Origin: a virus
Lineage: Duplodnaviria; Heunggongvirae; Uroviricota; Caudoviricetes
Length of the DNA stretch: 19,187 bases
Direction: 5' to 3' (one strand)
Virus record (IMG/VR): IMGVR_UViG_2657244943_000004
Positions within the stretch are counted from its first letter, which is position 1. Each line of letters opens with the position of its first letter. The notes below the pieces were generated by a model. It did not search any database and was not told the DNA's origin. It saw only the letters and a list, made by a program, of their open reading frames with translations. Of the stretch, positions 917 to 12,500 are shown one piece after another. The position numbers and the translations under genes are program-made.

Positions 917-2828
917 TCACTCCTCCGGACAGCTTCGCTGCCAGTTCTTTAAGGGTTGGCCGGGTCGTCTCTTCTTCCCGGGATTTTGCCAGTACAGCCA
1001 GATCAAGCTGCCAGCGTTGCACGGACACACGTAATGCCGCGTAGGCATACACCAGGCAGTCCAGCGCTTCGTTACGCCGCTTTTTGTTATCCCACAGCAG
1101 ACGCATCTTTCCTTTTTCCCACTTCTCCACAAGCTCTTCCGCGACCAGTTGCTGCGCCTCTGTCTGCGAAAAAATCTCCGGATCATCAGGAAAACGGATG
1201 GCATACGACGTGGCTTCATCCACAGGCGTGGGATCGGCTTTCATACGGGCATAGAGAATTTCTTTTGCGGTGTCCGTCCCCACTTCACACAGATACACGC
1301 CCCGCTGATTGCGGGTTTTTGGCATGGTGATCACCGGCTTGCCATAGACAGATGCGCCTTTTATCGGCAGCACCCGGAAAACACCGTGTTTTTTTGACCT
1401 CTGATAAACGATTTCGCCATCGATCCCCCCGATGTCCCAGCAGACACGAGAAATAGTCATTTCGGTTCCGTCTGCATGGCGGTATTTTTTGTTGATCGCC
1501 GCATCCACACGTAACAGCGTCTCTTCCTCATCGGGACGCCCCATAATGATGATTTTATCCACCAGAAAGGCTTCCTCTCCCGGAGCCCATCCCCAGACAT
1601 ACATCTCAAAACGGTTTCGCTGCGAGTCAATGCCCGCCGTCAGATAAACCACCCGGGCAGGCACCGCCGCCGTGTAACGCACAACCTTATCCATCAGTAC
1701 CTGGTGATCGAGTTTTTCGCCCACGGCCTCTTCCCAGGTCTCGCCCAGCGTGGTGTTCACAAAGGTTTTCAGGCCGTTGGGATCTTTCAGTGCATCCAGC
1801 CAGTCATAGACAATCTGTACCCATGTGGTGAACGGACTGTACGCCGTCCAGATATGGAAAGTGATGGAGCGCGGCGGCGGAATTTCATCACCCCGGGCGC
1901 TGAAAAACATCAGGCCGTCACGGGTCCACATGCCCGTGTTTTCACAGATCCACCGCCCGTTACTCTGGTCAAGCTCAGACTGATGGATCACACAGCCATG
2001 ATGCTCACAAAGGTAGAAAACACTTTCTGGCTTATTCTTCTCCCACTTAAGACCGAAAGGCGAGGCATCATCGCCAAATTTCAGATACTGCTCCTCCCCA
2101 CAGTGCGGACAGGGCACATAAAAACGCATGAAGTGTGCCGACTCGTTAGCGGCTTTTTCGATCTGGCAGGAGCCTTTGATTTTAGGCGTCGAGCCGCGAA
2201 TGGATTTTGGCCATACAGAGCCCTCAATACGTTTATCCCCCAGCAGGGTTGGCGAACCCTCTTTTTCAACATCCGGTTCGAACGAGGAAAGCTCGTCATA
2301 ACAGACCACATCCACGGATTTTTCACGGTAGTTTTTTGCTGCCGCACCACCCAGACACCAGAACCCCACACCGGAGGAAAAACGCTTCAGGGTGAGCGTA
2401 TTATCGCGGTGTTTTCTTCCGAACCATGGAGCCAGCTCCAGCAATGCAGGAACATCCCTTATCGTTGGCTCAACATGAGATTTCATAAAATCTTCAGCAG
2501 CTGAGTCCGTGGGCTGAAAAAGAAGGCTGTTGCGTGATTTATGCTCAATAAAATAAGCCTCCACTCCCAGCAACATCTTTGTATAACCAACACGGGCAGA
2601 TTTAATCAGGTTAACCGTGCGAATCAGATCGTTGCCCATACAGTTCATGATGCCAACCTGAAACGGCAGTGTTTCCCACCGCCCCGGGGTATAAGACGAC
2701 TCTTTAGGAAGGTAATAATGTTTATTGGCCCACTGAACTGTCGTCAGTGGAACAGGAATAATGAGAGATAAAAGCCCTGTAGCTATCGCACCGGCTGCAT
2801 TAGCTGCCTTCTGCGCGTCTGAAATCAT
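900..2828 (-). CDS. A: Terminase large subunit (lambda gpA homologue)
   Basis: Long ORF with strong recalled similarity to lambda gpA (e.g. [58 protein letters not shown]). The ORF track starts at 2870, but the ATG at 2828 (MISDAQKA...) gives about 642 aa and a lambda-like short overlap with Nu1, so 2828 is preferred. Confidence 0.95.
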
Positions 2829-3348
2829 CGATCCACCCGCCCACGTTTTCACCGGCCTTAGCTGCAACATTGGAGGCTTTCGCGATTTCAGTTTTCACCA
2901 CATCAAGGTGTGATGGTGAAATGTCCGGATATTTACGCTGTAATGTCAACGGCACACGCACAAGTATCCCCGAAATCTCCTGTGCCACACGTTGCAGAAT
3001 GAAGGTAAACAGTTCAGTTTCCAGCACTACTCCGTCTTCACGGGCATTTTTCAGTTCCTGCGCATCTGCCTGCGCTTTTGTGAGCCTGTAGCGTTCATAG
3101 TCAATGGTGCCGGGTTGTAAATCTGACTCCGCTGCCGCACGCAAATCGTCCAGTTCTTTGCGGAGCTTTTCGTTTTCGATATCAGTTTCCCTCTGCGCAT
3201 ACCACTGAATTGCCATGGCAGTATCAAATACAGATTCAATGCCCTTACTACCTTTGGAGGCGCAAGGGAGTCCCTGAGACTGCCAGCGTTCAATCGTCCG
3301 CGGGTCCACGTTGAAAATTTCGGCAAGCCTCTTTTTATTAACCTTCAT
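2800..3348 (-). CDS. nu1: Terminase small subunit (lambda Nu1 homologue)
   Basis: 182 aa starting [12 protein letters not shown]...; recalled homology to lambda Nu1 (N-terminal winged [34 protein letters not shown]). Lies directly downstream of the cos site. Confidence 0.93.
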
Positions 3349-3514
3349 GAAAACAACCCATTATCAAATACAAGGCCCGACATGAAAACGCCAGAAAAAG
3401 GCATTTTCGGACACTTTCATGTCGGACCTTTACGGATGAAATATTAAAAAAAACAAAAAGTTATATTCGAGAAGTACCGACACGATTTTCCCTGAAAAAT
3501 TTTCATAAATAGTG
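3349..3514 (-). promoter_or_regulatory. cosB-like terminase-binding region between cosN and nu1
   Basis: Position equivalent to lambda cosB. Contains an 11-bp inverted repeat (ccgacatgaaa ... tttcatgtcgg, about 3377-3427) analogous to the inverted repeat in lambda cosB. No binding data. Confidence 0.5.
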
Positions 3515-3545
3515 AAAAACCGCGGGGTCGCCGCCCCGTAGCCTG
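3515..3545. other. cosN cohesive-end site (lambda-like)
   Basis: Minus-strand sequence GGGGCGGCGACCCCGCGGTTTTTCACTATTTATGAAAATTTT closely matches the lambda left end (GGGCGGCGACCTCGCGGGTTTTCGCTATTTATGAAAATTTTCC), then diverges. Core at plus-strand 3526-3537. Confidence 0.85.
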
Positions 3546-4096
3546 CCGGATCACCGGAAAGGACCCGCAAAACCGAGAATAAGTATCAATACTATTTGTG
3601 ATTTGAATGATGCACATCATTGAAACGCCATTCATCCATATACCAGCAGCATTCGGTGTTGCACTTCGTAACTCTGTGACTACGGTTATAAAAGCATTGG
3701 CAACTTTTGCCACCGGCAAGTCTTCAATGGATTTCCCCTGCCGGTTTTTTATTTTCGTCGATGCATAACATTGCATTTACGTCAATAGCAGCTATTGTCA
3801 TTAGTATGTTGCATCGATGCATGGGTGGTATTGGCGGTCTTCGCCGACCGGTTCTGTGTAGCTCCCTATGACCGGTTTTTTATTTCTAAGATTACAGAAG
3901 CCCTTCACTGTATGAAGGGCTTATGTAACTCTTCTTACTTAGTAATTTTCGCACCTTCCGGTATTTCCATGCGTTGAGAAAACCTCATACTATCCGACAA
4001 TAATCATCAATATACGATAAAGACATCTGACCAGATTGCAGTATTAAAAGCACTCATGCAGACTACGCCCCTCATATCATATACAAGGGGATACTG

Positions 4097-4507
4097 ATGG
4101 CTCAGGTTGCCATTTTTAAAGAAATATTTGATCAAGTGCGGAAAGATTTAAACTGTGACCGGTTTTACTCTGAACTAAAACGCCACAATGTCTCACATTA
4201 CATTTACTATTTAGCCACAGGTAATATTCACATTGTATTTGAGAGCGATAACACGGTGTTAATAAAAGGTTTCCATGATGTTATTCATGTTAGCTTTTGC
4301 AGAGACACGCGACTTATAGAAACTTACCTTCATAAGTTGAAATCAAGAGAAATCACATTTCATGAATACAGGGTAAATCTGGCTAAAGCTGGAGTTTTCC
4401 GATGGGTTACAAATATCCACGAACACAAAAGATATTACTATACCTTTGACAACTCATTATTGTTTACCGAAAGCATCCAGAACACGACTCAAATTTTTCC
4501 ACGCTAA
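4097..4507 (+). CDS. ybcV: DUF1398-family protein, YbcV-like prophage accessory protein
   Basis: 136-aa product [20 protein letters not shown]...[27 protein letters not shown] matches my memory of E. coli DLP12 YbcV. Good SD (aagggga) before the ATG. Plus strand, opposite to the late operon. Identity recalled, not searched. Confidence 0.8.
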
Positions 4508-4731
4508 ACCATAACGTCCGGTTTGATCCGCCTCAGTAGCCGGCACTCCCACACAGGAGTTACCAGTCGGTGCTGTGGCCATAGTTAATCTGGGTATACA
4601 GTAAAGATACAGCACATCTGGCATACTTTAATAAACATTAACAATATGAGATTTCAACTCATTGTTTAGGTTTTGTTTAAATTTCCACAAATACGATGCA
4701 CCAAACTTAAAAACACAACGGGAATCACACG

Positions 4732-5025
4732 ATGAAAAAAACGCTACTCACTTTCACACTGGCGCTGCTTATCTCTGGATGTGCTCAACAGACGTTTACA
4801 GTTGAAAACAAACCTACAACAGTAACACCGAAGGAAACCATCACTCATCATTTCTTCGTTTCAGGAATTGGTCAGAAGAAAACTGTCGATGCAGCCAAAA
4901 TTTGTGGTGGCGCAGATAAAGTTGTTAAAACTGAAACCCAGCAAACATTCGTAAATGGATTGCTCGGTTTTATTACTTTAGGCATTTATACTCCGCTTGA
5001 AGCTCGGGTCTATTGCTCACAATAA
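4732..5025 (+). CDS. bor: Bor lipoprotein (serum-resistance lipoprotein of lambdoid phages)
   Basis: 97 aa MKKTLLTFTLALLISGCAQQTFTV...LGIYTPLEARVYCSQ; near-identical to recalled lambda Bor, with signal peptide and lipobox (LISGC). Encoded opposite to the late genes, as in lambda. Confidence 0.92.
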   Translation: MKKTLLTFTLALLISGCAQQTFTVENKPTTVTPKETITHHFFVSGIGQKKTVDAAKICGGADKVVKTETQQTFVNGLLGFITLGIYTPLEARVYCSQ

Positions 5026-5288
5026 TTACATGCGCTGCCCATCAATATGGGCAGTTTTATTTACACTGTTAACCCCTTGGTTGTTTCAGCCGCCGGGGTT
5101 TTACTTGTTATTCACTGGTATGAGTACGACATCTGGCCATTTCATTCCGGGCTTTACTGTCGCCGCGACAGATGCAACGCATCGTATCGCCGTTCAGCGT
5201 AGTGATATAAGCCTCATCCGTTTTCTCTACCTGCAAACATGAAATATTCCCGTTCCGGCAATACTCAATTTTTGCTGCCAGATGGGTA

Positions 5289-5390
5289 TTACGCGGGTAA
5301 AACTCCATACGATACATATCCCCCCAGGACATGCACTTCCTCAACCTGACGACCATCTTCAGTTACCGTAATCTTTTTCAGTGCGTACAT
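5289..5390 (-). CDS. Candidate small ORF (33 aa) with strong RBS downstream of the lysis cassette
   Basis: GGAGG lies 5 nt upstream of the ATG at 5390 (minus); product MYALKKITVTEDGRQVEEVHVLGGYVSYGVLPA. No homology recognised. Overlaps the 82-aa ORF 5108..5356 in another frame. Confidence 0.25.
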   Translation of the reverse strand: MYALKKITVTEDGRQVEEVHVLGGYVSYGVLPA

Positions 5391-5422
5391 ACGTACCTCC
5401 GTTCTTTCGTTTTTTGAACAAT

Positions 5423-5443
5423 AAAAAAGCCACTGAAGTGACC
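5423..5443 (-). terminator. Putative intrinsic terminator after the endolysin gene
   Basis: Minus-strand RNA ggucacuucaguggc followed by uuuuuu, about 15 nt after the endolysin stop. Short stem with one G-U pair. Confidence 0.4.
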
Positions 5444-5455
5444 TTTTCGATGAGT

Positions 5456-6010
5456 TTATAAACCAACGCGCTCTTTCATCCAGCCATAGACAAACGACTC
5501 GTTAGCCTCGCGTTTCTCTGCCAGCGCCAGATAACGCTCACCCTGCGTACAGTTCAGGGCTTTCACCAGTACCAGTTCGCCATCCCTGCCGCGATTTTTC
5601 AGATAAGAACGTAACGCATTAATGGTTCGCGGCCCGATCCCCCCGTCTGTAACTATGTCCGGATACAGCATTCCCTTCTGATTAAACACATTCAGCCAGC
5701 GCTGAAGCATTTTTGTGGCTACCGACGGCCCCATGTTTACCCCGGTATCACACAGTTCTGCAGCAATATCAGGAGACAGGTTTGCCACCTGGTCAAAACG
5801 AGGTCCATACCAATAGTCCGCCTCAAGGATTTCCAGAGCCTGCCCGCGGCTCAAATCACGCATATCACCACGGTAACCATGCGCGCGCGCCACTTTTTCA
5901 GTAATTCCCCACTTCGTCGCTCCGCCTGTATCGTCAGGATGACTGACATAACCCCCCTCTTTTCCGAGGATTTCATCAAAAATTTCATCTCTCGATTTCA
6001 TATCAGCCAC
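5456..6010 (-). CDS. Endolysin, glycoside hydrolase family 108-like with predicted peptidoglycan-binding C-terminal region
   Basis: 184 aa. The N-terminal motif EGGYVSHPDDTGGATKWGIT is characteristic of GH108 N-acetylmuramidases. Last gene of the lysis cassette; start overlaps the upstream gene by 8 nt. Confidence 0.8.
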   Translation of the reverse strand: MADMKSRDEIFDEILGKEGGYVSHPDDTGGATKWGITEKVARAHGYRGDMRDLSRGQALEILEADYWYGPRFDQVANLSPDIAAELCDTGVNMGPSVATKMLQRWLNVFNQKGMLYPDIVTDGGIGPRTINALRSYLKNRGRDGELVLVKALNCTQGERYLALAEKREANESFVYGWMKERVGL

Positions 6011-6281
6011 TCAGGAAAGCAAAAATTTTTGAAACATTACCGCGCGCACGCACTACCATGACACCAAATACCAGGTTCAGCATCACCACCAGCCAGTCTG
6101 CCGGCAACGGATGACCACAGAGATAACTTAACGGCGTTATCGCATACAACAGCATCAGACACCAGGCGCACCACGATATCAGCGGTTTGTGTCGTGACTC
6201 TTTTCTGCGGTAGAAAAAAAGCGTCAGCACGATAACCGTACATAACGCCGCATTCAGTAATCCTGGAAGATTATTTGTCAT
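6003..6281 (-). CDS. Small two-TM membrane protein in lysis cassette (holin/antiholin-like or lysis accessory)
   Basis: 92 aa from the ATG at 6281, preceded by GGAGGAGG; hydrophobic segments LLNAALCTVIVLTLFFY and LVVMLNLVFGVMVV. Overlaps the putative holin stop and the endolysin start. The ORF-track start at 6299 is a GTG. Confidence 0.55.
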   Translation of the reverse strand: MTNNLPGLLNAALCTVIVLTLFFYRRKESRHKPLISWCAWCLMLLYAITPLSYLCGHPLPADWLVVMLNLVFGVMVVRARGNVSKIFAFLSG

Positions 6282-6663
6282 TACCACCACCTCCTCCACG
6301 CTGACGGGAGAACAGACCGGATACCAGTGATGTAATCTCCTGCTGGTGGATGAATGACAGGACTTTTACTGAGAGCACCGACACCAGGACCGCACACAAC
6401 GCATCAACGGAAGCACTGTTAAACCCAATACGTTCCGCCATGTAACCGGCCACACCACGGGCCCCAAGCACACCAACAATAAAGGACACCAGAAAATGTG
6501 CAGCCACACGCCAGGCTGAAAGTGTCTGCGGCATTGTTGCCACAAATAACGCACCAGCGAACGCACCAAATACAATCCCGAAATCCGTCCCGGTAAACAG
6601 CCCGAATACCGTCGCCCCGCCGAGCGCCACAGCAGTGCCGGAACCGGATAAGGGTTCAGACAT
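6271..6663 (-). CDS. Putative holin (about three TM segments)
   Basis: 130 aa from the ATG at 6663 with an AGGAGA RBS; Gly/Ala-rich hydrophobic segments; first gene of the lysis cassette. No similarity to lambda S, so the assignment is positional and topological. Confidence 0.6.
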   Translation of the reverse strand: MSEPLSGSGTAVALGGATVFGLFTGTDFGIVFGAFAGALFVATMPQTLSAWRVAAHFLVSFIVGVLGARGVAGYMAERIGFNSASVDALCAVLVSVLSVKVLSFIHQQEITSLVSGLFSRQRGGGGGNDK

Positions 6664-6862
6664 ATTTATTCTCCTGTAAATAAAAAGGACCATCAGCGGC
6701 CCCGTAACTGACATTTTATTAACGTTTGAAGATATGGATATTTATCAGGGTTTACCGTTTTCTGAACCCTGGATATGTTAAGCATTCAGCCCGCCAGTGG
6801 TGGGACGCTGGCTCATCATAGAGAAAGAGGGATGGCTGATTACCTCTGATCAGGGAAATTAC

Positions 6863-7132
6863 ATGCAGTTTTTACATAAAAGAATGCATTTAAATGCAGG
6901 AGATACGGTAGTGGTTGACTGCTCTCATCAGTGCAATATTTTGCTGATGACAGATACAAACTTTAATAACTACCGCAACGCAAGAAGCTTTCATCATCAC
7001 GGTGGTGGCGGTTTTTTTCAGAGATTACCGGCCCACCTTCATGTACCGCATTCAGGTTACTGGAATATTACAATTGATTTAGGAGGCGGAAGTGCAGCTA
7101 TTCGGCACTCCATTTCCGTCATCCCAGCATAG
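6863..7132 (+). CDS. Hypothetical protein (about 89 aa), His/Gly-rich
   Basis: ORF track 6797..7132 starts with GTG; the in-frame ATG at 6863 has an AGGG SD. Product contains HHHGGGGFF. Antisense to the late operon. No family recognised. Confidence 0.4.
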   Translation: MQFLHKRMHLNAGDTVVVDCSHQCNILLMTDTNFNNYRNARSFHHHGGGGFFQRLPAHLHVPHSGYWNITIDLGGGSAAIRHSISVIPA

Positions 7133-7498
7133 CAACTCGCCTTTAGCCTGAGTAAATGCGTCCTCAAGGACGGCAACGAGTCGCAGTTGCGTGCCGTCCT
7201 TTACACAGCGTGTGCAGGCAATACCTTCAGAACTTTCATTATGCCGAGCTCATACAATTTCACCATTTTGTTCAACTACAACGCTCATAATTTTCTTACA
7301 CTTTTTTAATAAACCACACCAATAACAACCATCACCGATACCTTTTGTATGCTGTTATTTTGCATTACGGTGTAACGGCAAGAGCCACCTCCCCGCCCAC
7401 CAACACACCATCAGCCAGTACCGACATCAACCGCCTAGTGAAATCCACTGCCACTACCAGAAACAACAGGATGGCAGCCAGCACAAGGCCCGCACTTT

Positions 7499-7924
7499 TC
7501 ACAGATACTGCTCCAGTGGTAACTGAAGCGCCTGTGCAATTTTCTTGAGCTGCGCTTCTTCATCCGGACCAATGCCATCCTGATCAGCGATATCCAGACA
7601 GAGGCAAAGCACGTCAACCGCCTCAGTTGTCCCCGCCACATCAGCCAGCTCACGTAATGCATGCGCATTCGCACTACGCGGTGACGCTTCATAACGGGCG
7701 CGGATATTGGCGCTCATCTGGGCAATCTCACCAGAGAACGGTGCAAAAGCAGGAAGCGCAGCAATGGTTTTCTCCAGTACTGCGATTTCTTTTGCGTCGC
7801 AGGTGCCGTCGGCATATGCAATGGAATATGCGCCCCAGACGGTCGCCTCCACCGCATCACGGTTCTCCATCTTCTTCACTTCAGTGATGGCCTTGCGGGT
7901 TTTCTTTTTGAAAATACCTAACAT
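7499..7924 (-). CDS. TerB-family (tellurite-resistance TerB-like) protein
   Basis: 141 aa; N- and C-terminal acidic motifs typical of TerB (YADGTCDAKEIAVLEKTIA ... DIADQDGIGPDEEAQLKKIAQALQL). Own transcription unit, downstream of the terminator at 8059-8082. Confidence 0.7.
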   Translation of the reverse strand: MLGIFKKKTRKAITEVKKMENRDAVEATVWGAYSIAYADGTCDAKEIAVLEKTIAALPAFAPFSGEIAQMSANIRARYEASPRSANAHALRELADVAGTTEAVDVLCLCLDIADQDGIGPDEEAQLKKIAQALQLPLEQYL

Positions 7925-8058
7925 CGTGACTTTTCCTTTGCGTAGACGAGCCTGCGCCAGATGGTTACCAGCCCACAGTGAAAGTCACACTGACAATCCC
8001 GTAAGCACCTCCTGAAAGGCTCTGTGTTTTTGATGTGCGCCAGGTGTGGCTCAGATAC

Positions 8059-8082
8059 AAAAAAAGCTCGCCGTAGCGAGCT
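8059..8082 (-). terminator. Rho-independent terminator (minus strand)
   Basis: Perfect 7-bp stem agctcgc / gcgagct with 4-nt loop, followed on the minus strand by a run of 7 U (plus-strand A-run 8059-8065); 24 nt after the stop of the 8106..8384 gene. Confidence 0.65.
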
Positions 8083-8105
8083 AACAGAAAATATGAAGCA
8101 TGTTT

Positions 8106-8384
8106 TTATCCACGAAGCATGACAATGAACTCATCCATGCCTACACGGCTGGCTATCTCGTTGTATTCCTCAACAAGAGCCAGCAATTCTGAATTAGCAG
8201 CCATGAACTCATCAAAAACCTTATGGATGGCATCACTGTTTAATAAAACAATGTTCTTTCCTGAAAGGCGATCAGGGGTAGAAAATATAACTGTTAAACG
8301 ACTAAAGGCCCTGGCTCGTTCAGCATTAACATCCTCAATACGCTGCAACAAGCTGGAGCACCTGGAAATATCATCAATATTCAC
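8106..8384 (-). CDS. Hypothetical protein, 92 aa
   Basis: GTG start at 8384 preceded by AGGAG with 4-nt spacing; followed by a clean terminator. No homology recognised. Confidence 0.5.
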   Translation of the reverse strand: MNIDDISRCSSLLQRIEDVNAERARAFSRLTVIFSTPDRLSGKNIVLLNSDAIHKVFDEFMAANSELLALVEEYNEIASRVGMDEFIVMLRG

Positions 8385-8903
8385 TCTACTCCTGCCATCT
8401 GGATGATAATCATTTCACGGAGAGAAGCACTCAGAAGTACCACTGAAGTATAACTGGTGACCAGCTGCTTACACATCTGTTGCCATCCTGCTGATGATAA
8501 GTCGATATTAACCCTTCTGTCTATAAACGAAACAAAGGATAAGTTCAGGTTTTAAACACACTGCCAGGATAAAGTATTGTATACAGTATAGAAGAGCGTT
8601 ATTGAATGACATAAAAAACCAGACCTAATCCCTTATCCGGAATATATATCAAATAAACGGGGAAAATGTATTAAGATGGCGTTCCTATTCTCTCCATCCC
8701 TGATGTCCACGTAACTCGTTATAGAATCAGAACGCCATCTGAATACACACAAAAAAGCTGGCTTCACACCCTCCTGCATGTGTGAACGCAGTGCCCGACC
8801 ACGTGCTTTCGCAACCAGCGAAAATCAGTTTTAAATACCGAAAAACGATAAGAATATATCAGAACTTCCAAGCATCCTGCTTGGCTTAGATATTAATCGA
8901 AGA

Positions 8904-9989
8904 TTAGCTCCTGTTCTTATCTAATTGTGCATTTCGCAATTTATCGTTCAGCACCAATATTTCACCAACTGTTTGTTCAAAACGCCCGGACTCAAGTTCA
9001 ACCCCAATCGTGCGACGCCCCAATCCCATTGCTGCTTTTATTGTTGCCCCCGATCCCATAAAAAAATCCGCAACCACATCCCCCGGACGACTGCTGGCAG
9101 AAATTATCTGACGCAACATATCCGCCGGTTTTTCGCAGGGATGCTTACCCGGATAATACTGTACGGGCTTATGCGTCCAGACATCCGTATAAGGAACGGC
9201 GGCCGATACAGAAAAATAACGCCGCAGAGATTTGTATTCCTCAAGCAGACTGGCATATTGCCGGTTCAGTTCACTGTATGTGCTGACCAGCAGTTGGTGT
9301 GGCGTTGCCAGCTCCCCACGCTGGTGTTTTTCTTCTGCAACACGCGCGAACAGCGCCTGCAGTTTTCTGTAATCAGCTTCGTTCGGTAACTGCCACTGAC
9401 TGGTACCAAACCAGTGCGACACCATGTTTTTCTTTCCGGTGGCTTCCGCTATCTGTTTGGACGTTATTCCCAGTGATTCACGCGCATCACGAAAGTAAAA
9501 AATCAGCGGGGCCATGACGTGTTGTTTAAGCTCGCGCTCCTTTGCCGCATAGCCGGCATTTTTTGGCTGATATGGCCCCTGATAATGTTCGGCAAACAGA
9601 ATGCGCTCTGTTGCCGGGAAATACGCCCGCAGGCTTTCTTTGTTGCACCCGTTCCAGCGTCCGGACGGCTTCGCCCAGATAATGTGGTTCAGCACATTAA
9701 AGCGCTCACGCATCATGATTTCGATATCAGATGCCAGGCGATGACCACAAAACAGGTAAAGACTTCCGGCAGGCTTCAGTACCCGCCAGAACTGAGCCAG
9801 ACACTGGTCCAGCCATTTCAGGTAATCATCGTCTCCCTTCCACTGGTTATCCCAGCCCTCGGGCTTCACTTTAAAATATGGCGGGTCTGTGACTATAAGA
9901 TCGACAGAGTTTTCCGATAAGGTCTGGATAAATTCCAGGCAATCGGTGTTGATTAACTCACAACTGGATATTTTTACAGTATCAACCAT
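8904..9989 (-). CDS. DNA methyltransferase, beta-class amino-MTase (N6-adenine or N4-cytosine), probably orphan
   Basis: 361 aa; catalytic DPPY motif near the N-terminus (LIVTDPPYF) and AdoMet motif near the C-terminus (VVADFFMGSGAT), i.e. beta-class order; about 120-aa insert between them. Architecture resembles YhdJ-type MTases. No restriction endonuclease gene nearby. Confidence 0.88.
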   Translation of the reverse strand: MVDTVKISSCELINTDCLEFIQTLSENSVDLIVTDPPYFKVKPEGWDNQWKGDDDYLKWLDQCLAQFWRVLKPAGSLYLFCGHRLASDIEIMMRERFNVLNHIIWAKPSGRWNGCNKESLRAYFPATERILFAEHYQGPYQPKNAGYAAKERELKQHVMAPLIFYFRDARESLGITSKQIAEATGKKNMVSHWFGTSQWQLPNEADYRKLQALFARVAEEKHQRGELATPHQLLVSTYSELNRQYASLLEEYKSLRRYFSVSAAVPYTDVWTHKPVQYYPGKHPCEKPADMLRQIISASSRPGDVVADFFMGSGATIKAAMGLGRRTIGVELESGRFEQTVGEILVLNDKLRNAQLDKNRS

Positions 9990-10139
9990 AGATCAATAAG
10001 CACTTCTCTGATAGGCTCATACCGCTTTTGCGCAAAGCGGATGGGCCTGAGGTTTGCTTGTGACCCCGATTCATGAGCAGATGGCTGGCAGGTGCCGCTA
10101 ACACCCACCAGCCGCCCATTACCACAAAGTAAAAAGCCT

Positions 10140-10337
10140 TCACTGCGGAAGGCGTCTGTAACAACCGAACTGATAATCTGCCAGACCCGCCATAACAAGC
10201 TGGGTCAGTATTAACTGGCAGCGTTCGCGTGAAAGGTAAGTATTCTGCGCAATTTCCCCAACTGTTGCCGGTTCAGTGACGCTTAATTCATTAAACACCA
10301 CTCTGGCTGTTTCTGTCATATCCTGCTGTTTTAGCAT
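10140..10337 (-). CDS. Small putative winged-helix DNA-binding protein (65 aa)
   Basis: Product contains PATVGEIAQNTYLSRERCQLILTQLVMAGLA, which looks like an HTH/winged-helix. Purine-rich region before the ATG. Between the membrane protein and MTase genes, same strand. Confidence 0.45.
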   Translation of the reverse strand: MLKQQDMTETARVVFNELSVTEPATVGEIAQNTYLSRERCQLILTQLVMAGLADYQFGCYRRLPQ

Positions 10338-10510
10338 GTCTTTTTCTCTTTATTGGTTAACGTGACATACCAATAACTCTTGTCGAAGAAGCCAGCAAGC
10401 TGAAAGACCGGTATTAATAACCACCTGCACATTTTATGTACCGAACCATTTTTCTGGCATAAAAAACCTCTCAATGGCGGGCGGTAAAAATCTTTGTTAC
10501 TCAAGAAATT

Positions 10511-11224
10511 TTAACGCACTCTGACTGTATTAATTTCAAAATCATTAATATTTCCGCTATTAAATATAACGAATTTCTTACCCCCACTCCTGTATGATTT
10601 CGATAACACCAGACGATCATCATAACGCGCAATAATGTAATACCATACATTCTCATAGTGGATCGCCTGATATTCCCTCTTAAACTGTGGTTTGTACCAA
10701 CCGGCAATAAGAGAGAATGCCCAGAAATAAATCATAAACCCAGCCATCATGAACTCAATTCGGTGATGGCGAATAAAAGACATTTCCGAAAAACATTTGA
10801 CTGAAACAAGTCTTCTTCCAGACCTGACAAAAAGCGTGATTGTAAAGGCAGCAAGAATGCAGAAAATCAGTACATCTGGCTCAACATGCTGATGAATTAC
10901 CGAAAACTCCAGAACAGGTGGAATAAAAAGCAGCAATATCGCGAGAAAAAGCCGGATAAAACTCAAATTTTGTATATTGCGCTTTTGTTTTATGCCCAAA
11001 AAGAAAACAATACCAACTCCCCATCCAATAAGGAATATAACGATAACTGTCACAGCATAAAACAAACTTCGTGCAACATCATCGACACCAGCCCCGACAA
11101 CCCACCATGGAAAGCCATAGTAAAATGAAGTACCCCATCCATAGAAATAAGCGCTTCCCCATCCTAGACAGCCCATATAAGCAACAAAAAGTGAAGAGTT
11201 TCTGAGCAGAGCACTGTCATTCAT
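10511..11224 (-). CDS. Multi-pass membrane protein of unknown function (237 aa), AT-rich accessory gene
   Basis: Several hydrophobic segments rich in aromatic/Gly residues; C-terminal soluble tail of about 60 aa. Visibly more AT-rich than flanking phage genes. First gene after the tR'-like terminator. Confidence 0.6.
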   Translation of the reverse strand: MNDSALLRNSSLFVAYMGCLGWGSAYFYGWGTSFYYGFPWWVVGAGVDDVARSLFYAVTVIVIFLIGWGVGIVFFLGIKQKRNIQNLSFIRLFLAILLLFIPPVLEFSVIHQHVEPDVLIFCILAAFTITLFVRSGRRLVSVKCFSEMSFIRHHRIEFMMAGFMIYFWAFSLIAGWYKPQFKREYQAIHYENVWYYIIARYDDRLVLSKSYRSGGKKFVIFNSGNINDFEINTVRVR

Positions 11225-11478: not shown

Positions 11479-12144
11479 CTATGAAAATGCCGCCTTTTGT
11501 TTTGAACGTGTTCTCTCCACTAACAATAAAGCTTCACTATCCAGCCGATGAAAAATGTGTTTCATTGCAACCCAGTGACCAGTAAATGTCTTGGACCAGT
11601 TTTTGGTTGTTACTCCCACCAGTAACGCCAGTTCCTGGTATTCGTAACCTTCCCCACCAAAAAGCTCAGCTTTTACCGCCTGCGCCACCAACCAGATCAA
11701 CGTCTTCAGGCGCACCAGAGTTTTTCCTGCAATTTTTCTGGTACCGGATTGAGCATTAAATTCAGTCCACGCCCACTGCGTTATCGCGATCTGATGCTCC
11801 CAGCAAATGCTACCGCTGTAACACCACAGCAGCCAGGCTTTATGATGTTCTTCAAGAGACAGAACGGCGCGTCGCCATGATGATGTCGAAAACTCAACCG
11901 GACTGACCAGGGCAATTGATGAACCTTTCGCCAGCGATTGCTTTCCCGGGATCGGTGGATTATCCAGCGTTACTATTTTTCCAGTGACCTTATCGCGGTA
12001 CCGGATTTTTTTACGTCTGTAACGCCCTGTATTGAACATGGCATTCTCCTGCCAGGCTTCAAGCTGACCTTTTGTTGCTCCACTCAAATCAGCGGTGGCG
12101 ATCGTGAGCTGCTCACGCACAAACTGTAAATACTGGTTATTCAT
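11479..12144 (-). CDS. Putative late-gene antiterminator (Q-like), 221 aa
   Basis: Called mainly by synteny: directly downstream of rusA (ATG overlaps the rusA stop as ATGA) and directly upstream of the promoter/terminator pair and lysis genes. No Cys zinc-finger as in lambda Q. The family is not confirmed. Confidence 0.55.
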   Translation of the reverse strand: MNNQYLQFVREQLTIATADLSGATKGQLEAWQENAMFNTGRYRRKKIRYRDKVTGKIVTLDNPPIPGKQSLAKGSSIALVSPVEFSTSSWRRAVLSLEEHHKAWLLWCYSGSICWEHQIAITQWAWTEFNAQSGTRKIAGKTLVRLKTLIWLVAQAVKAELFGGEGYEYQELALLVGVTTKNWSKTFTGHWVAMKHIFHRLDSEALLLVERTRSKQKAAFS

Positions 12145-12500
12145 GCGCACTCCAGTTCTGTGATTTTTATCCCCAGCCGACCACCGGGAACAACCTGACC
12201 GCGCATAATATTAACTTCATCAAACTGCTCGTCGTCGATAAGCAGTCCCGCATGTGTCAGTGCATCCAGTGGTGCTTTCAGAATATTGTCCAGGTCACGA
12301 CGGCGCTTATCCGGTGGCTCTGCAATAATTTTTATTGCCAGCCTTCCGGACAGATTTAATTTCAGCCGCTGCTGGCGAACAATAAGCGCCACATCCCGGC
12401 GATAACGCTCCCCTGCTTTTGATACAAAATATGTGCTGCCACGACGACGCCAGTAGGTATTTACCGTCGGCGGGTAAGGCAAAACAAATTCTATCCCCAT
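12141..12500 (-). CDS. rusA: Holliday-junction resolvase RusA
   Basis: 119 aa from the ATG at 12500; RRDLDN motif (PPDKRRRDLDNILKAPLDALTHAGLLIDD) and overall resemblance to E. coli RusA. Typical nin-region position. Confidence 0.9.
   Translation of the reverse strand: MGIEFVLPYPPTVNTYWRRRGSTYFVSKAGERYRRDVALIVRQQRLKLNLSGRLAIKIIAEPPDKRRRDLDNILKAPLDALTHAGLLIDDEQFDEVNIMRGQVVPGGRLGIKITELECA

Follow-up and report, generated by a model that had tools for sequence, protein, structure and literature searches.

In lambda and DLP12, the lysis region stands between Q and the terminase genes in the late operon and consists of S/essD, R/rrrD and Rz/rzpD with embedded Rz1/rzoD, followed by bor on the opposite strand and by ybcV. 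The spanin-null phenotype has been described for lambda Rz/Rz1 (Kongari et al. 2018, PMC6139136). In Shewanella LambdaSo, nested Rz/Rz1 genes are situated between the holin and the endolysin. The spanin-less phages collected in Table 10 of Kongari et al. (2018), as well as phiKT with its gp28 disruptin, have a holin and an endolysin and no cassette-linked lipoprotein or type II membrane protein, an arrangement shared with the locus described below; no lambdoid coliphage is found in that table (PMC6139136).

Two groups of cassettes are closer in gene content. Yersinia phage vB_YpM_41, Escherichia phage SaltyDalty and the 47-kb plasmid-prophage pECO-b75 have the same gene order and sizes as our locus (holin_8-like, holin_3_7-like, GH108) and an endolysin 81% identical to ours, followed by overlapped i/o-spanins (phrog_1026, 92 aa, and phrog_1275, 69 aa, the latter with a LIASC lipobox). 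In these, the i-spanin start overlaps the endolysin stop, whereas homology to our locus ends at the endolysin stop codon. The phiP27-type cassettes (Stx2e phage phiP27, phiSTEC1575-Stx2k and many E. coli prophages) contain a holin pair about 79% identical to ours at the nucleotide level. Features missing from our locus but found in theirs are a 60-aa lipoprotein, phrog_7528, which may be accompanied by the small TM proteins phrog_1115 and phrog_4906, and in many cases an M15 endolysin.

We analyzed a window of 19,187 nucleotides, the whole stretch of DNA available from IMG/VR record IMGVR_UViG_2657244943_000004. The sequence comparisons indicate that, of the three steps by which Gram-negative cells are lysed, its lysis cassette probably accomplishes two, and that the outer-membrane step was lost through overwriting of the slot behind the endolysin.

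Lysis genes of the Qin-site prophage

The cassette resides in a 46-kb lambdoid E. coli prophage at the Qin/ydfJ site, flanked by Q (11479..12150) and the terminase genes, which is the late-operon position seen in lambda and DLP12. The integrase, repressor, head and tail genes are still in the prophage. A first-pass annotation had placed the cassette at 5026-6663; all of its coordinates were correct, and the coding strand is the minus strand. The features are as follows.

6271..6663, minus strand: holin, Phage_holin_8, 130 aa (PF16931, E 2.3e-22, full length; phrog_198 'holin', E 1.7e-39)
6003..6281, minus strand: second holin-family membrane protein, Phage_holin_3_7, 92 aa (PF05449, E 3.5e-21; phrog_217 'holin', E 1.9e-35)
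5456..6001, minus strand: GH108 muramidase endolysin, 181 aa (PF05838 Glyco_hydro_108, E 1.9e-25; PF09374 PG_binding_3, E 9e-25)
5423..5448, minus strand: terminator-like hairpin, then a U-run, directly 3' of the endolysin stop (fold -11.5 kcal/mol, z = -3.28 against shuffles)

The PF16931 and PF05449 matches both exceed the curated cut-offs. Together with phrog_198, PF16931 confirmed the putative holin at 6663..6271, which PGAP also names 'putative holin'. Its gene is preceded by an AGGAGA Shine-Dalgarno sequence 7 nt 5' of the ATG at 6663, and the hydropathy scan yielded three to four hydrophobic segments. The following gene had been described as coding for a small two-TM protein. A second membrane gene is indeed there, but the PF05449 family is described as 3-TM, and a crude hydropathy scan of 6281..6003 detected two strong segments and one weaker one. 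Starts and stops had been reported to overlap; this applies to the two holin genes, which share 11 nt, but the second holin and the endolysin are 1 nt apart (TGAtATG) and overlap only if GTG at 6010 is taken as the start. As in a canonical holin-endolysin cassette, a holin-family small membrane protein is encoded immediately upstream of the endolysin in a late operon.

The endolysin (6001..5456) contains the Glyco_hydro_108 and PG_binding_3 domains expected from its GH108-type assignment and an EGGY motif. It has a net charge of -2 and lacks a TM, signal or SAR segment, being a peptidoglycan hydrolase without a secretion signal. We infer from these sequence properties that it is soluble, cytoplasmic and holin-dependent. 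Its identity is 81% to the endolysin of vB_YpM_41 and 84% over 178 residues to Sen1395 (PDB 6V3Z), the muramidase activity of which was shown biochemically (PMC6996933). Sen1395 and TtsA (PDB 6V3Z, 6V40; Salmonella) have the same two-domain layout. TtsA acts in toxin secretion on LD-cross-linked peptidoglycan, whereas the gene of the window enzyme follows two holin genes in the late operon of a prophage, and the groove residues of this enzyme are mixed (V117, G121, E165, N167). The terminator-like hairpin noted behind the endolysin proved real by RNA folding (5448..5423), while it was missing from the output of a simple consensus terminator scan.

The window has a 100% identical counterpart in the genome of ARS-C301. 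At its DLP12 site, this host carries a full lambda-like prophage with essD-rrrD-rzpD, an intact Rz (153 aa, N-terminal TM) and an embedded Rz1 (60 aa, VVGC lipobox). This resident canonical Rz/Rz1 belongs to a prophage different from the one at the Qin site.

Spanin candidates

An Rz-like gene, an embedded Rz1 frame and a unimolecular spanin had not been found on inspection of the sequence, with a dedicated prediction in all frames, the endolysin gene included, named as the check. We carried out this prediction by scanning for lipoboxes from every start codon in all six frames, with strict and relaxed rules. Only one ORF of the window qualified:

4732..5025, plus strand: bor, Bor/Iss outer-membrane lipoprotein (phrog_260, E 6.4e-56; PGAP 'Bor family protein'; lipobox scans)

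Between 3300 and 7200, the relaxed lipobox and i-spanin-like scans returned nothing besides bor, and no ORF of at least 55 aa combined a TM in the first 30 residues with a hydrophilic tail. Near the lysis genes, 12 nt of the Rz 3' end are what is left of an i-spanin with an N-terminal TM and a periplasmic domain. The only credible lipobox for an o-spanin is that of bor, a member of the Bor family on the opposite strand, and this sole lipobox ORF has no C-terminal TM, as a unimolecular spanin of the T1 gp11 type would. The strict and relaxed scans revealed no embedded lipobox frame in 6003..6281 and excluded a spanin inside the endolysin or holin genes or, in LambdaSo style, between holin and endolysin. 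In a PHROG scan of the 41 ORFs of at least 30 aa at 3350-7200, no spanin family was matched except over 28 residues of ORF 4460..4624(-) (phrog_6954 'Rz-like spanin', E 0.002, 19 bits). We rejected this match as chance; the ORF has neither TM nor lipobox and sits within the bor-ybcV spacer conserved with DLP12. Elsewhere in the 46-kb prophage, neither a spanin annotation nor a credible ORF with a lipobox was found.

The earlier observation was thus borne out by the lipobox, i-spanin and PHROG scans. Of the three fates considered for the missing spanin, namely divergence, a location elsewhere and loss, the evidence from the sequence supports loss. No frame scan speaks for a divergent gene, and annotation and lipobox scans of the whole element exclude a location elsewhere in the prophage. 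The absence is defined by sequence rules (lipobox, N-terminal TM), which an outer-membrane disruptor of a novel type would escape. As for bor, PGAP and phrog_260 agree with its first identification on the opposite strand behind the hairpin. It is a moron expressed in lysogeny and not a lysis gene, and it is the only lipoprotein that the lipobox scans found in the prophage.

The slot behind the endolysin

The region between the endolysin and the ybcV-like gene is composed of the following elements, in addition to bor.

5108..5390, minus strand: broken phrog_33497 gene (PGAP 'frameshifted'; the reconstruction of about 93-94 aa matches phrog_33497 end to end, E 1.2e-48)
5070..5102, minus strand: hairpin 3' of the pseudogene, last stretch common to the related loci L005, L037 and L112 and left edge of the swapped segment (alignment, fold, blastn breakpoints 5082-5092)
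5057..5068, minus strand: scar of the Rz (rzpD) 3' end, CAGTGTAAATAA (Q-C-K-stop) versus DLP12 CAGTGCAGATAG (Q-C-R-stop)
5034..5055, no strand assigned: hairpin between the convergent bor and lysis operon, conserved with DLP12 (terminator-like scan, 9 pairs; fold; alignment)
4097..4507, plus strand: DUF1398 (ybcV-like) gene, part of the DLP12-like block 5068..3978 (PGAP; blastn to DLP12)

The 82-aa ORF 5108..5356 and the 33-aa ORF 5289..5390, originally read as separate, turned out to be the halves of one frameshifted gene, each matching phrog_33497. The frameshift is caused by one additional G in the G-run 5320..5325, which is G6 here and G5 in intact copies. The G6 run is common to eight near-identical loci, while phrog_33497 is intact in seven others and in Ceylon31. 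Sequencing error as the source was rejected on account of the same G6 in eight independent assemblies. The phrog_33497 product is a protein without assigned function; NCBIfam provided no name for it, for the holins or for the 60-aa lipoprotein.

By blastn, window 5068..3978 is 82.7-85.7% identical to the rzpD tip, bor and ybcV of DLP12. With stop codons aligned, the Rz scar shows 9 identities in 12 positions. In megablast, the rzpD-bor homology in about 3500 E. coli genomes begins at query position 133, i.e. window 5068, under the rzpD annotation; in DLP12 (L097), the match begins at 1801 and rzpD ends at 1812. The left end of the block thus lies 12 nt before the Rz stop, and the block therefore retained bor and ybcV without the body of Rz/Rz1. 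The description of the cassette as non-lambda applies to the holins and the endolysin, where lambda and DLP12 have unrelated families, the S/EssD holin and R/RrrD lysozymes, in place of Phage_holin_8, Phage_holin_3_7 and GH108. It does not apply to the bor side, which is lambda/DLP12-like in the bor-ybcV block, the inter-gene hairpin and the last 12 nt of Rz. Relative to lambda and DLP12, the window lacks the Rz/Rz1 body and has an extra phrog_33497 (pseudogene) between the endolysin and the scar.

Taken alone, the short 12-nt scar shows only that the imported block starts at the very end of Rz, and says nothing on an earlier presence of Rz/Rz1 in this prophage. An ancestor with the order phrog_33497, Rz/Rz1, bor was not found among 30 phrog_33497 loci in IMG/VR. 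Rz/Rz1 may have been deleted in place or may never have arrived with the bor block.

Comparison with related prophages, which had been proposed as a check, revealed that the siblings keep the flanks and differ in the contents of the slot. L112 matches window 5446..5082 (82.6%) and 3970..2503 (85.2%); between these flanks it has tm1115, tm4906 and the lipoprotein, where the window has the DLP12-like 5068..3978. In L037, a lambda-type Rz/Rz1 (phrog_13/3198) comes after phrog_33497. phiSTEC1575-Stx2k shares phrog_33497 with the window, and in phiP27-type cassettes conservation extends to the flanks left and right of the variable slot. Overall, the siblings contain small membrane proteins with the 60-aa lipoprotein, or lambda-type Rz/Rz1, or toxin genes. 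Since both flanks are kept in siblings and relatives carry spanins, the spanin function appears to have been lost by module replacement. This scar, the flanks and the spanin-bearing relatives constitute positive evidence for secondary loss, which distinguishes the window from the spanin-less phages of Table 10 (Kongari et al. 2018).

The sister prophage of Ceylon31, 94-96% identical, has the same junction together with an unbroken phrog_33497 and another terminase module. This arrangement without a spanin is therefore older than the frameshift and persistent, and its association with two packaging modules suggests that the junction travelled in recombining phages. Twelve of the 5426 complete genomes carry it, in two head-module backgrounds; the defect could accordingly be tolerated or compensated.

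The outer-membrane step and its alternatives

According to the reading we favor, one or both holin-family proteins (Phage_holin_8, Phage_holin_3_7) would permeabilize the inner membrane, and the GH108 muramidase released from the cytoplasm would degrade the peptidoglycan. No gene would provide for outer-membrane disruption, recombination with a DLP12/lambda-like block having presumably overwritten the slot 3' of the endolysin and phrog_33497. By analogy with lambda Rz/Rz1 nulls, induced cells would be expected to become fragile spheres with the outer membrane as their boundary. Virion release would then need shear, low divalent cations, or a co-induced resident prophage that provides Rz/Rz1 in trans.

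Complete compensation along the last route is possible, although we doubt it: SOS would co-induce a second lambdoid prophage, the Rz/Rz1 of which would act on any peptidoglycan-degraded cell. The DLP12-site prophage of ARS-C301 has the intact Rz and Rz1 for this, and LexA-like repressors are found in both prophages, but the helper rzpD cassette is under its own QuuD antiterminator, and such a supply accounts for compensation and not for the encoded content. We are equally hesitant about domestication, in which spanin loss would be one neutral lesion of several and the cassette would no longer serve phage release. Cryptic prophages are classically found at the Qin site, and the phrog_33497 frameshift is present in the whole near-identical lineage, along with a truncated tail-fiber gene, a partial hokD and an IS66 adjoining the integrase. 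On the other hand, the lysis genes (holins, endolysin), Q, the packaging and virion genes (terminase, portal, capsid, tail) and the integrase, excisionase and repressor genes are annotated as intact, the junction without a spanin is older than the frameshift and is found with two packaging modules, and laboratory lambda tolerates a broken side tail fiber.

Other explanations would make a spanin superfluous or leave it hidden. It is improbable that a component of the cassette disrupts the outer membrane, whether the endolysin through membrane activity or the second holin-family protein, in the manner of the phiKT gp28 'disruptin' or of cationic-tailed endolysins. About 13-15% of the phages of Gram-negative hosts have no spanins (PMC6139136), alternatives to spanins exist (bioRxiv 10.1101/515445), and most members of the E. 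coli chromosomal lineage of this cassette lack a canonical i/o pair. Yet the endolysin is acidic and has no cationic or amphipathic tail, and vB_YpM_41, SaltyDalty and pECO-b75 combine canonical spanins with much the same holin pair and endolysin; the holin pair and endolysin are therefore no substitute for a spanin. From Q to terminase, no small protein in the annotation is both cationic and soluble, and the annotated window proteins include no cationic peptide candidate, unlike phiKT with gp28. It is very improbable that the cassette is a holin/muramidase secretion device (TtsA or type 10 secretion-like) that does not need a spanin. The endolysin is close to Sen1395 and TtsA, N167 is the equivalent of the critical TtsA N166 (PMC6996933), the residues at 117 and 121 are uncharged when read against the same paper, and AB5 toxin genes flank the same cassette in relatives. 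Against this, no secreted cargo is encoded next to the cassette, which is part of a late operon, and the surrounding prophage has a complete virion gene set; N167 also occurs in the endolysins of spanin-bearing phages, and the two holin genes are of the kind usual in phage cassettes. It is hardly credible that a spanin escaped notice because its lipobox is atypical, its start codon non-canonical or its reading frame buried within an endolysin or holin gene. It is true that no phage genes are overlooked more often than o-spanins, with 196 unannotated (Kongari et al. 2018), that LambdaSo offers a nested precedent and that ORF 4460..4624(-) gave its weak match, but the six-frame, all-start scans and the 41 ORFs produced no candidate with the required features.

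A further proposal concerns the lipoprotein phrog_7528, which was found in 52 of 80 related IMG/VR loci and is absent from the window (60-aa, LVGC; PHROG scan of ORFs and lipobox scan). Its mature part comprises about 30 residues, is helical and has two conserved Cys; the gene is often directly behind the endolysin without an inner-membrane partner, and homologues are named only 'hypothetical' or 'lipoprotein'. Kongari et al. (2018, PMC6139136) assigned to phiP27 a 'separated' two-component spanin of the shortest periplasmic length (62 residues), with the 60-aa lipoprotein as "o-spanin". The published i-spanin starts with TTG and runs antisense to an ORF of 90 aa. Its role as a conserved partner is not supported, since it occurs only in phiP27 and identical contigs, and the phrog_7528 module is therefore no more than a putative spanin. 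It is conceivable, if rather unlikely, that in the holin_8/holin_3_7 lineage (phiP27, Stx2k, LT-II prophages) phrog_7528, and not a spanin, carries out the outer-membrane step, and that window-type prophages are natural nulls borrowing co-resident Rz/Rz1. If this is true, these prophages, in which bor-ybcV replaced phrog_7528, would be natural nulls for a novel type of outer-membrane disruptor. The sole published spanin assignment for this cassette type, that of phiP27, leans on a non-conserved partner ORF.

Loss by slot overwriting, which remains our preferred reading, predicts a lysis defect with outer-membrane-bounded spheres, and release through shear, low divalent cations or a helper prophage. 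In this lineage, the slot has held spanins, bor, LT-II toxins, an MscS-like channel and small lipoproteins. The window would represent a clean natural case of slot trading after the endolysin in lambdoid phages; because the slot is traded among modules, a lysis function can vanish while the module still circulates.

The lysis cassette and the search for a spanin

The region is a late-operon lysis cassette on the minus strand. Family matches bore out the holin and the GH108 endolysin of the first-pass annotation and placed its small two-TM protein in a holin family, and the terminator-like hairpin and the opposite-strand bor gene described after the endolysin were both found.

Features of the lysis region (window positions)
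6663..6271 (-): Phage_holin_8 protein, 130 aa (family match)
6281..6003 (-): Phage_holin_3_7 protein, 92 aa (family match)
6001..5456 (-): GH108 + PG_binding_3 muramidase, 181 aa (domain matches)
5448..5423 (-): hairpin + U-run after the endolysin stop codon (z = -3.3)
5108..5390 (-): frameshifted CDS, phrog_33497 (PGAP annotation)
4732..5025 (+): bor (Bor family)

For the inner-membrane and peptidoglycan steps of lysis, the cassette has intact genes from known families. Its muramidase shares 84% identity with Sen1395 (PDB 6V3Z), for which ordinary peptidoglycan is a demonstrated substrate (PMC6996933). The enzyme lacks hydrophobic segments and is weakly acidic; it is therefore a soluble endolysin, and would depend on a holin. 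Another relative is TtsA (6V40), the muramidase that serves typhoid-toxin secretion. At the four groove positions separating Sen1395 from TtsA the window enzyme carries V117, G121, E165, and N167, three of them uncharged or TtsA-like; N167, the equivalent of the critical TtsA N166, also occurs in endolysin homologues of spanin-bearing phages. A G+C-rich hairpin followed by a T-run (6686..6703, minus strand) lies ~20 nt 5' of the holin start codon, and, unless Q has modified the RNA polymerase, may terminate transcription of the preceding moron genes (TerB, DUF3927).

The earlier statement that no spanin gene is recognisable held up in lipobox, TM, and PHROG scans. A strict lipobox scan of every ATG/GTG/TTG start in six frames of the whole window, requiring an uncharged h-region and a basic n-region, returned bor alone. 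In the relaxed scan of 3300-7200 (any [LVIAFMT][ASTVIGLC][GAS]C, whatever the start codon), a hydrophobic leader was again found only in bor, and no ORF in this interval combined an N-terminal TM segment with a hydrophilic tail. The interval 3350-7200 has 41 ORFs that reach 30 aa. Their PHROG matches were to phrog_33497 and to holin, endolysin, Bor, and DUF1398 families; none was to a spanin family, with one weak exception. This was a 55-aa ORF in the bor-ybcV spacer (4460..4624, minus strand), with a 28-residue match to the phrog_6954 'Rz-like spanin' (E 0.002); lacking both a TM segment and a lipobox, it was judged a chance match. Used on relatives as a positive control, the same approach readily detected spanins.

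The interval downstream of the endolysin

The 33-aa and 82-aa ORFs previously listed as separate turned out to be one frameshifted gene. Both halves match phrog_33497 on their own, and with one G taken out of the G6 run (5320..5325) the 94-aa translation matches the family over its full length (E 1e-48). The extra G is common to 8/8 near-identical loci compared; strain Ceylon31 and seven less closely related loci have an intact 93-aa gene. The frameshift is therefore an inherited lesion and not a sequencing error. In IMG/VR, phrog_33497 is located solely in the position directly behind endolysins (GH108 or M15) of this cassette type; a role as an accessory or regulator of lysis is possible. 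The intact protein is Cys-rich without a TM segment, with copies in related loci L014, L037, L099, and L100-L129.

The same three-gene cassette, with an 81% identical endolysin, is present in Yersinia phage vB_YpM_41, Escherichia phage SaltyDalty, and the 47-kb plasmid pECO-b75. Unlike the window, these carry an overlapped two-component spanin immediately after the endolysin: a 92-aa i-spanin (phrog_1026) with its ATG overlapping the stop codon of the endolysin, and a 69-76-aa o-spanin with an LIASC lipobox (phrog_1275), both families being labelled 'Rz-like spanin'. This type of pair occurred in none of 80 IMG/VR loci with a holin at least 82% identical to that of the window. A lambda-type Rz with embedded Rz1 followed phrog_33497 in three of the 80. 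The window-type order (GH108, phrog_33497, bor, DUF1398, terminase) was found in ~9, never with the phrog_7528 lipoprotein that follows the endolysin in many of the others. Among complete E. coli genomes, 79/5426 contain the endolysin. Five of these matches were sampled: the plasmid prophage (pECO-b75) has the i/o-spanin pair, and the four chromosomal prophages have LT-II toxin genes, an MscS-like channel, or phrog_33497 then terminase after the endolysin, and no spanin there (0/4).

The slot directly after the endolysin is a cargo hot spot, occupied by LT-IIa/LT-II enterotoxin genes, an MscS-like channel, or bor in prophages L003 (Rac-SA53), L013 (STEC719), L015 (SA31-1), L012 (ETEC1730), and L004 (phiP27). 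No canonical spanin was seen in these toxin prophages, and several relatives carry AB5 toxin genes (EplAB/pertussis-like, Stx2e) just upstream of the holin.

Comparison with the sibling prophage L112 pointed to a module swap. L112 is 82.6% identical to window 5446..5082 (phrog_33497 and its hairpin) and 85.2% identical to 3970..2503 (pre-terminase region and terminase), but between these flanks it carries small TM proteins and a lipoprotein. The pattern in phiSTEC1575-Stx2k is the same. In the window, 5068..3978 fills this interval with a DLP12 block (rzpD 3' end, bor, ybcV) at 83-86% identity. In ~3500 E. coli genomes the megablast match starts exactly at 5068, under the rzpD annotation. Since the corresponding DLP12 point lies 12 nt before the rzpD stop (window CAGTGTAAATAA, Q-C-K-stop; DLP12 CAGTGCAGATAG, Q-C-R-stop), the recombination joint lies at the very 3' end of Rz. 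A lambda/DLP12-like phage was the source of the bor side, without the Rz/Rz1 body, which may have been deleted in place or may never have come in. The intermediate phrog_33497 - Rz/Rz1 - bor was not found among 30 phrog_33497 loci in IMG/VR. The Ceylon31 prophage has the identical joint, a 94-96% identical module, an intact phrog_33497, and a different terminase module; the spanin-less arrangement is thus older than the frameshift and has passed into different phage backbones. It is rare (12/5426 complete genomes). Of the options raised initially, loss of the spanin is supported, with the flanks kept in siblings and the slot replaced by a DLP12-like block with an Rz scar.

Consequences for lysis

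The window is 100% identical to the E. coli ARS-C301 chromosome (2.6 kb tested), where it is part of a ~46 kb lambdoid prophage inserted in ydfJ (the Qin site) with integrase, excisionase, LexA-like repressor, Q, terminase, portal, capsid, and tail genes. The rest of this prophage contains no annotated spanin and no credible lipobox ORF, and we infer that the prophage lacks the outer-membrane step. Q (11479..12150) and the holin are separated by about 5 kb of cargo (window 7365..11224 and L001/L010/L011), comprising a 237-aa multi-TM protein, a DNA methyltransferase, a TerB-family protein, and DUF3927; DUF1883 is encoded on the other strand. One tail-fibre gene of the prophage is truncated and hokD is partial; it also has a zeta-toxin gene and, adjoining the integrase, an IS66.

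By analogy, the phenotype of lambda Rz/Rz1 knockouts would be expected. Knocking out either gene leaves fragile spheres with the outer membrane as their boundary; in shaken flasks these lyse through shear alone, and not if millimolar divalent cations keep the outer membrane stable (PMC6139136). An intrinsic substitute within the cassette is unlikely, because phage relatives have these same holins and this endolysin alongside spanins, and because the endolysin lacks a cationic tail. Spanins could plausibly be supplied in trans through co-induction: ARS-C301 also harbours, at the DLP12 site, a lambda-like prophage that is complete (NZ_CP132983.1 4494201..4495371; L132 2202..3372), with essD-rrrD-rzpD, an embedded lambda-like Rz1 (60 aa), and iss/bor, making it a candidate helper. 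Lambdoid phages normally show mosaic exchange where the lysis cassette ends. Spanin-less phages are a recognised class (~13% of genomes surveyed; PMC6139136), and the phiKT disruptin is at least one known alternative to spanins (bioRxiv 10.1101/515445). On these grounds the window prophage belongs to a known class, as a lambdoid prophage that became spanin-less secondarily and still shows a scar.

The phrog_7528 lipoprotein of relatives

The 60-aa phrog_7528 lipoprotein (LVGC lipobox) follows the endolysin in 52/80 of the IMG/VR loci (L017-L096).

Other phrog_7528 copies
L004 (phiP27) 5558..5746
L005 (sibling prophage) 5195..5377
L002 (related locus) 5324..5506 (-)

Its mature part has ~30 residues with two conserved Cys, and its homologues are all unnamed and restricted to Enterobacteriaceae. 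For phiP27, Kongari et al. (2018) list a two-component spanin of the 'separated' kind; its combined periplasmic length, 62 residues, is the shortest of all (PMC6139136). Their o-spanin is the phrog_7528 lipoprotein; their i-spanin is an ORF (20348-20542) that starts with TTG, runs antisense to one of 90 aa, and is confined to phiP27 itself. In 26 loci phrog_7528 lies directly after an M15 endolysin, and the five of these with ORFs listed had no N-terminal-TM partner before terminase. The lipoprotein may be a partnerless outer-membrane disruptor, could possibly work with the C-terminal-TM protein phrog_1115, or may be just another moron. In these relatives phrog_7528 is a more interesting lead than the spanin loss in the window.
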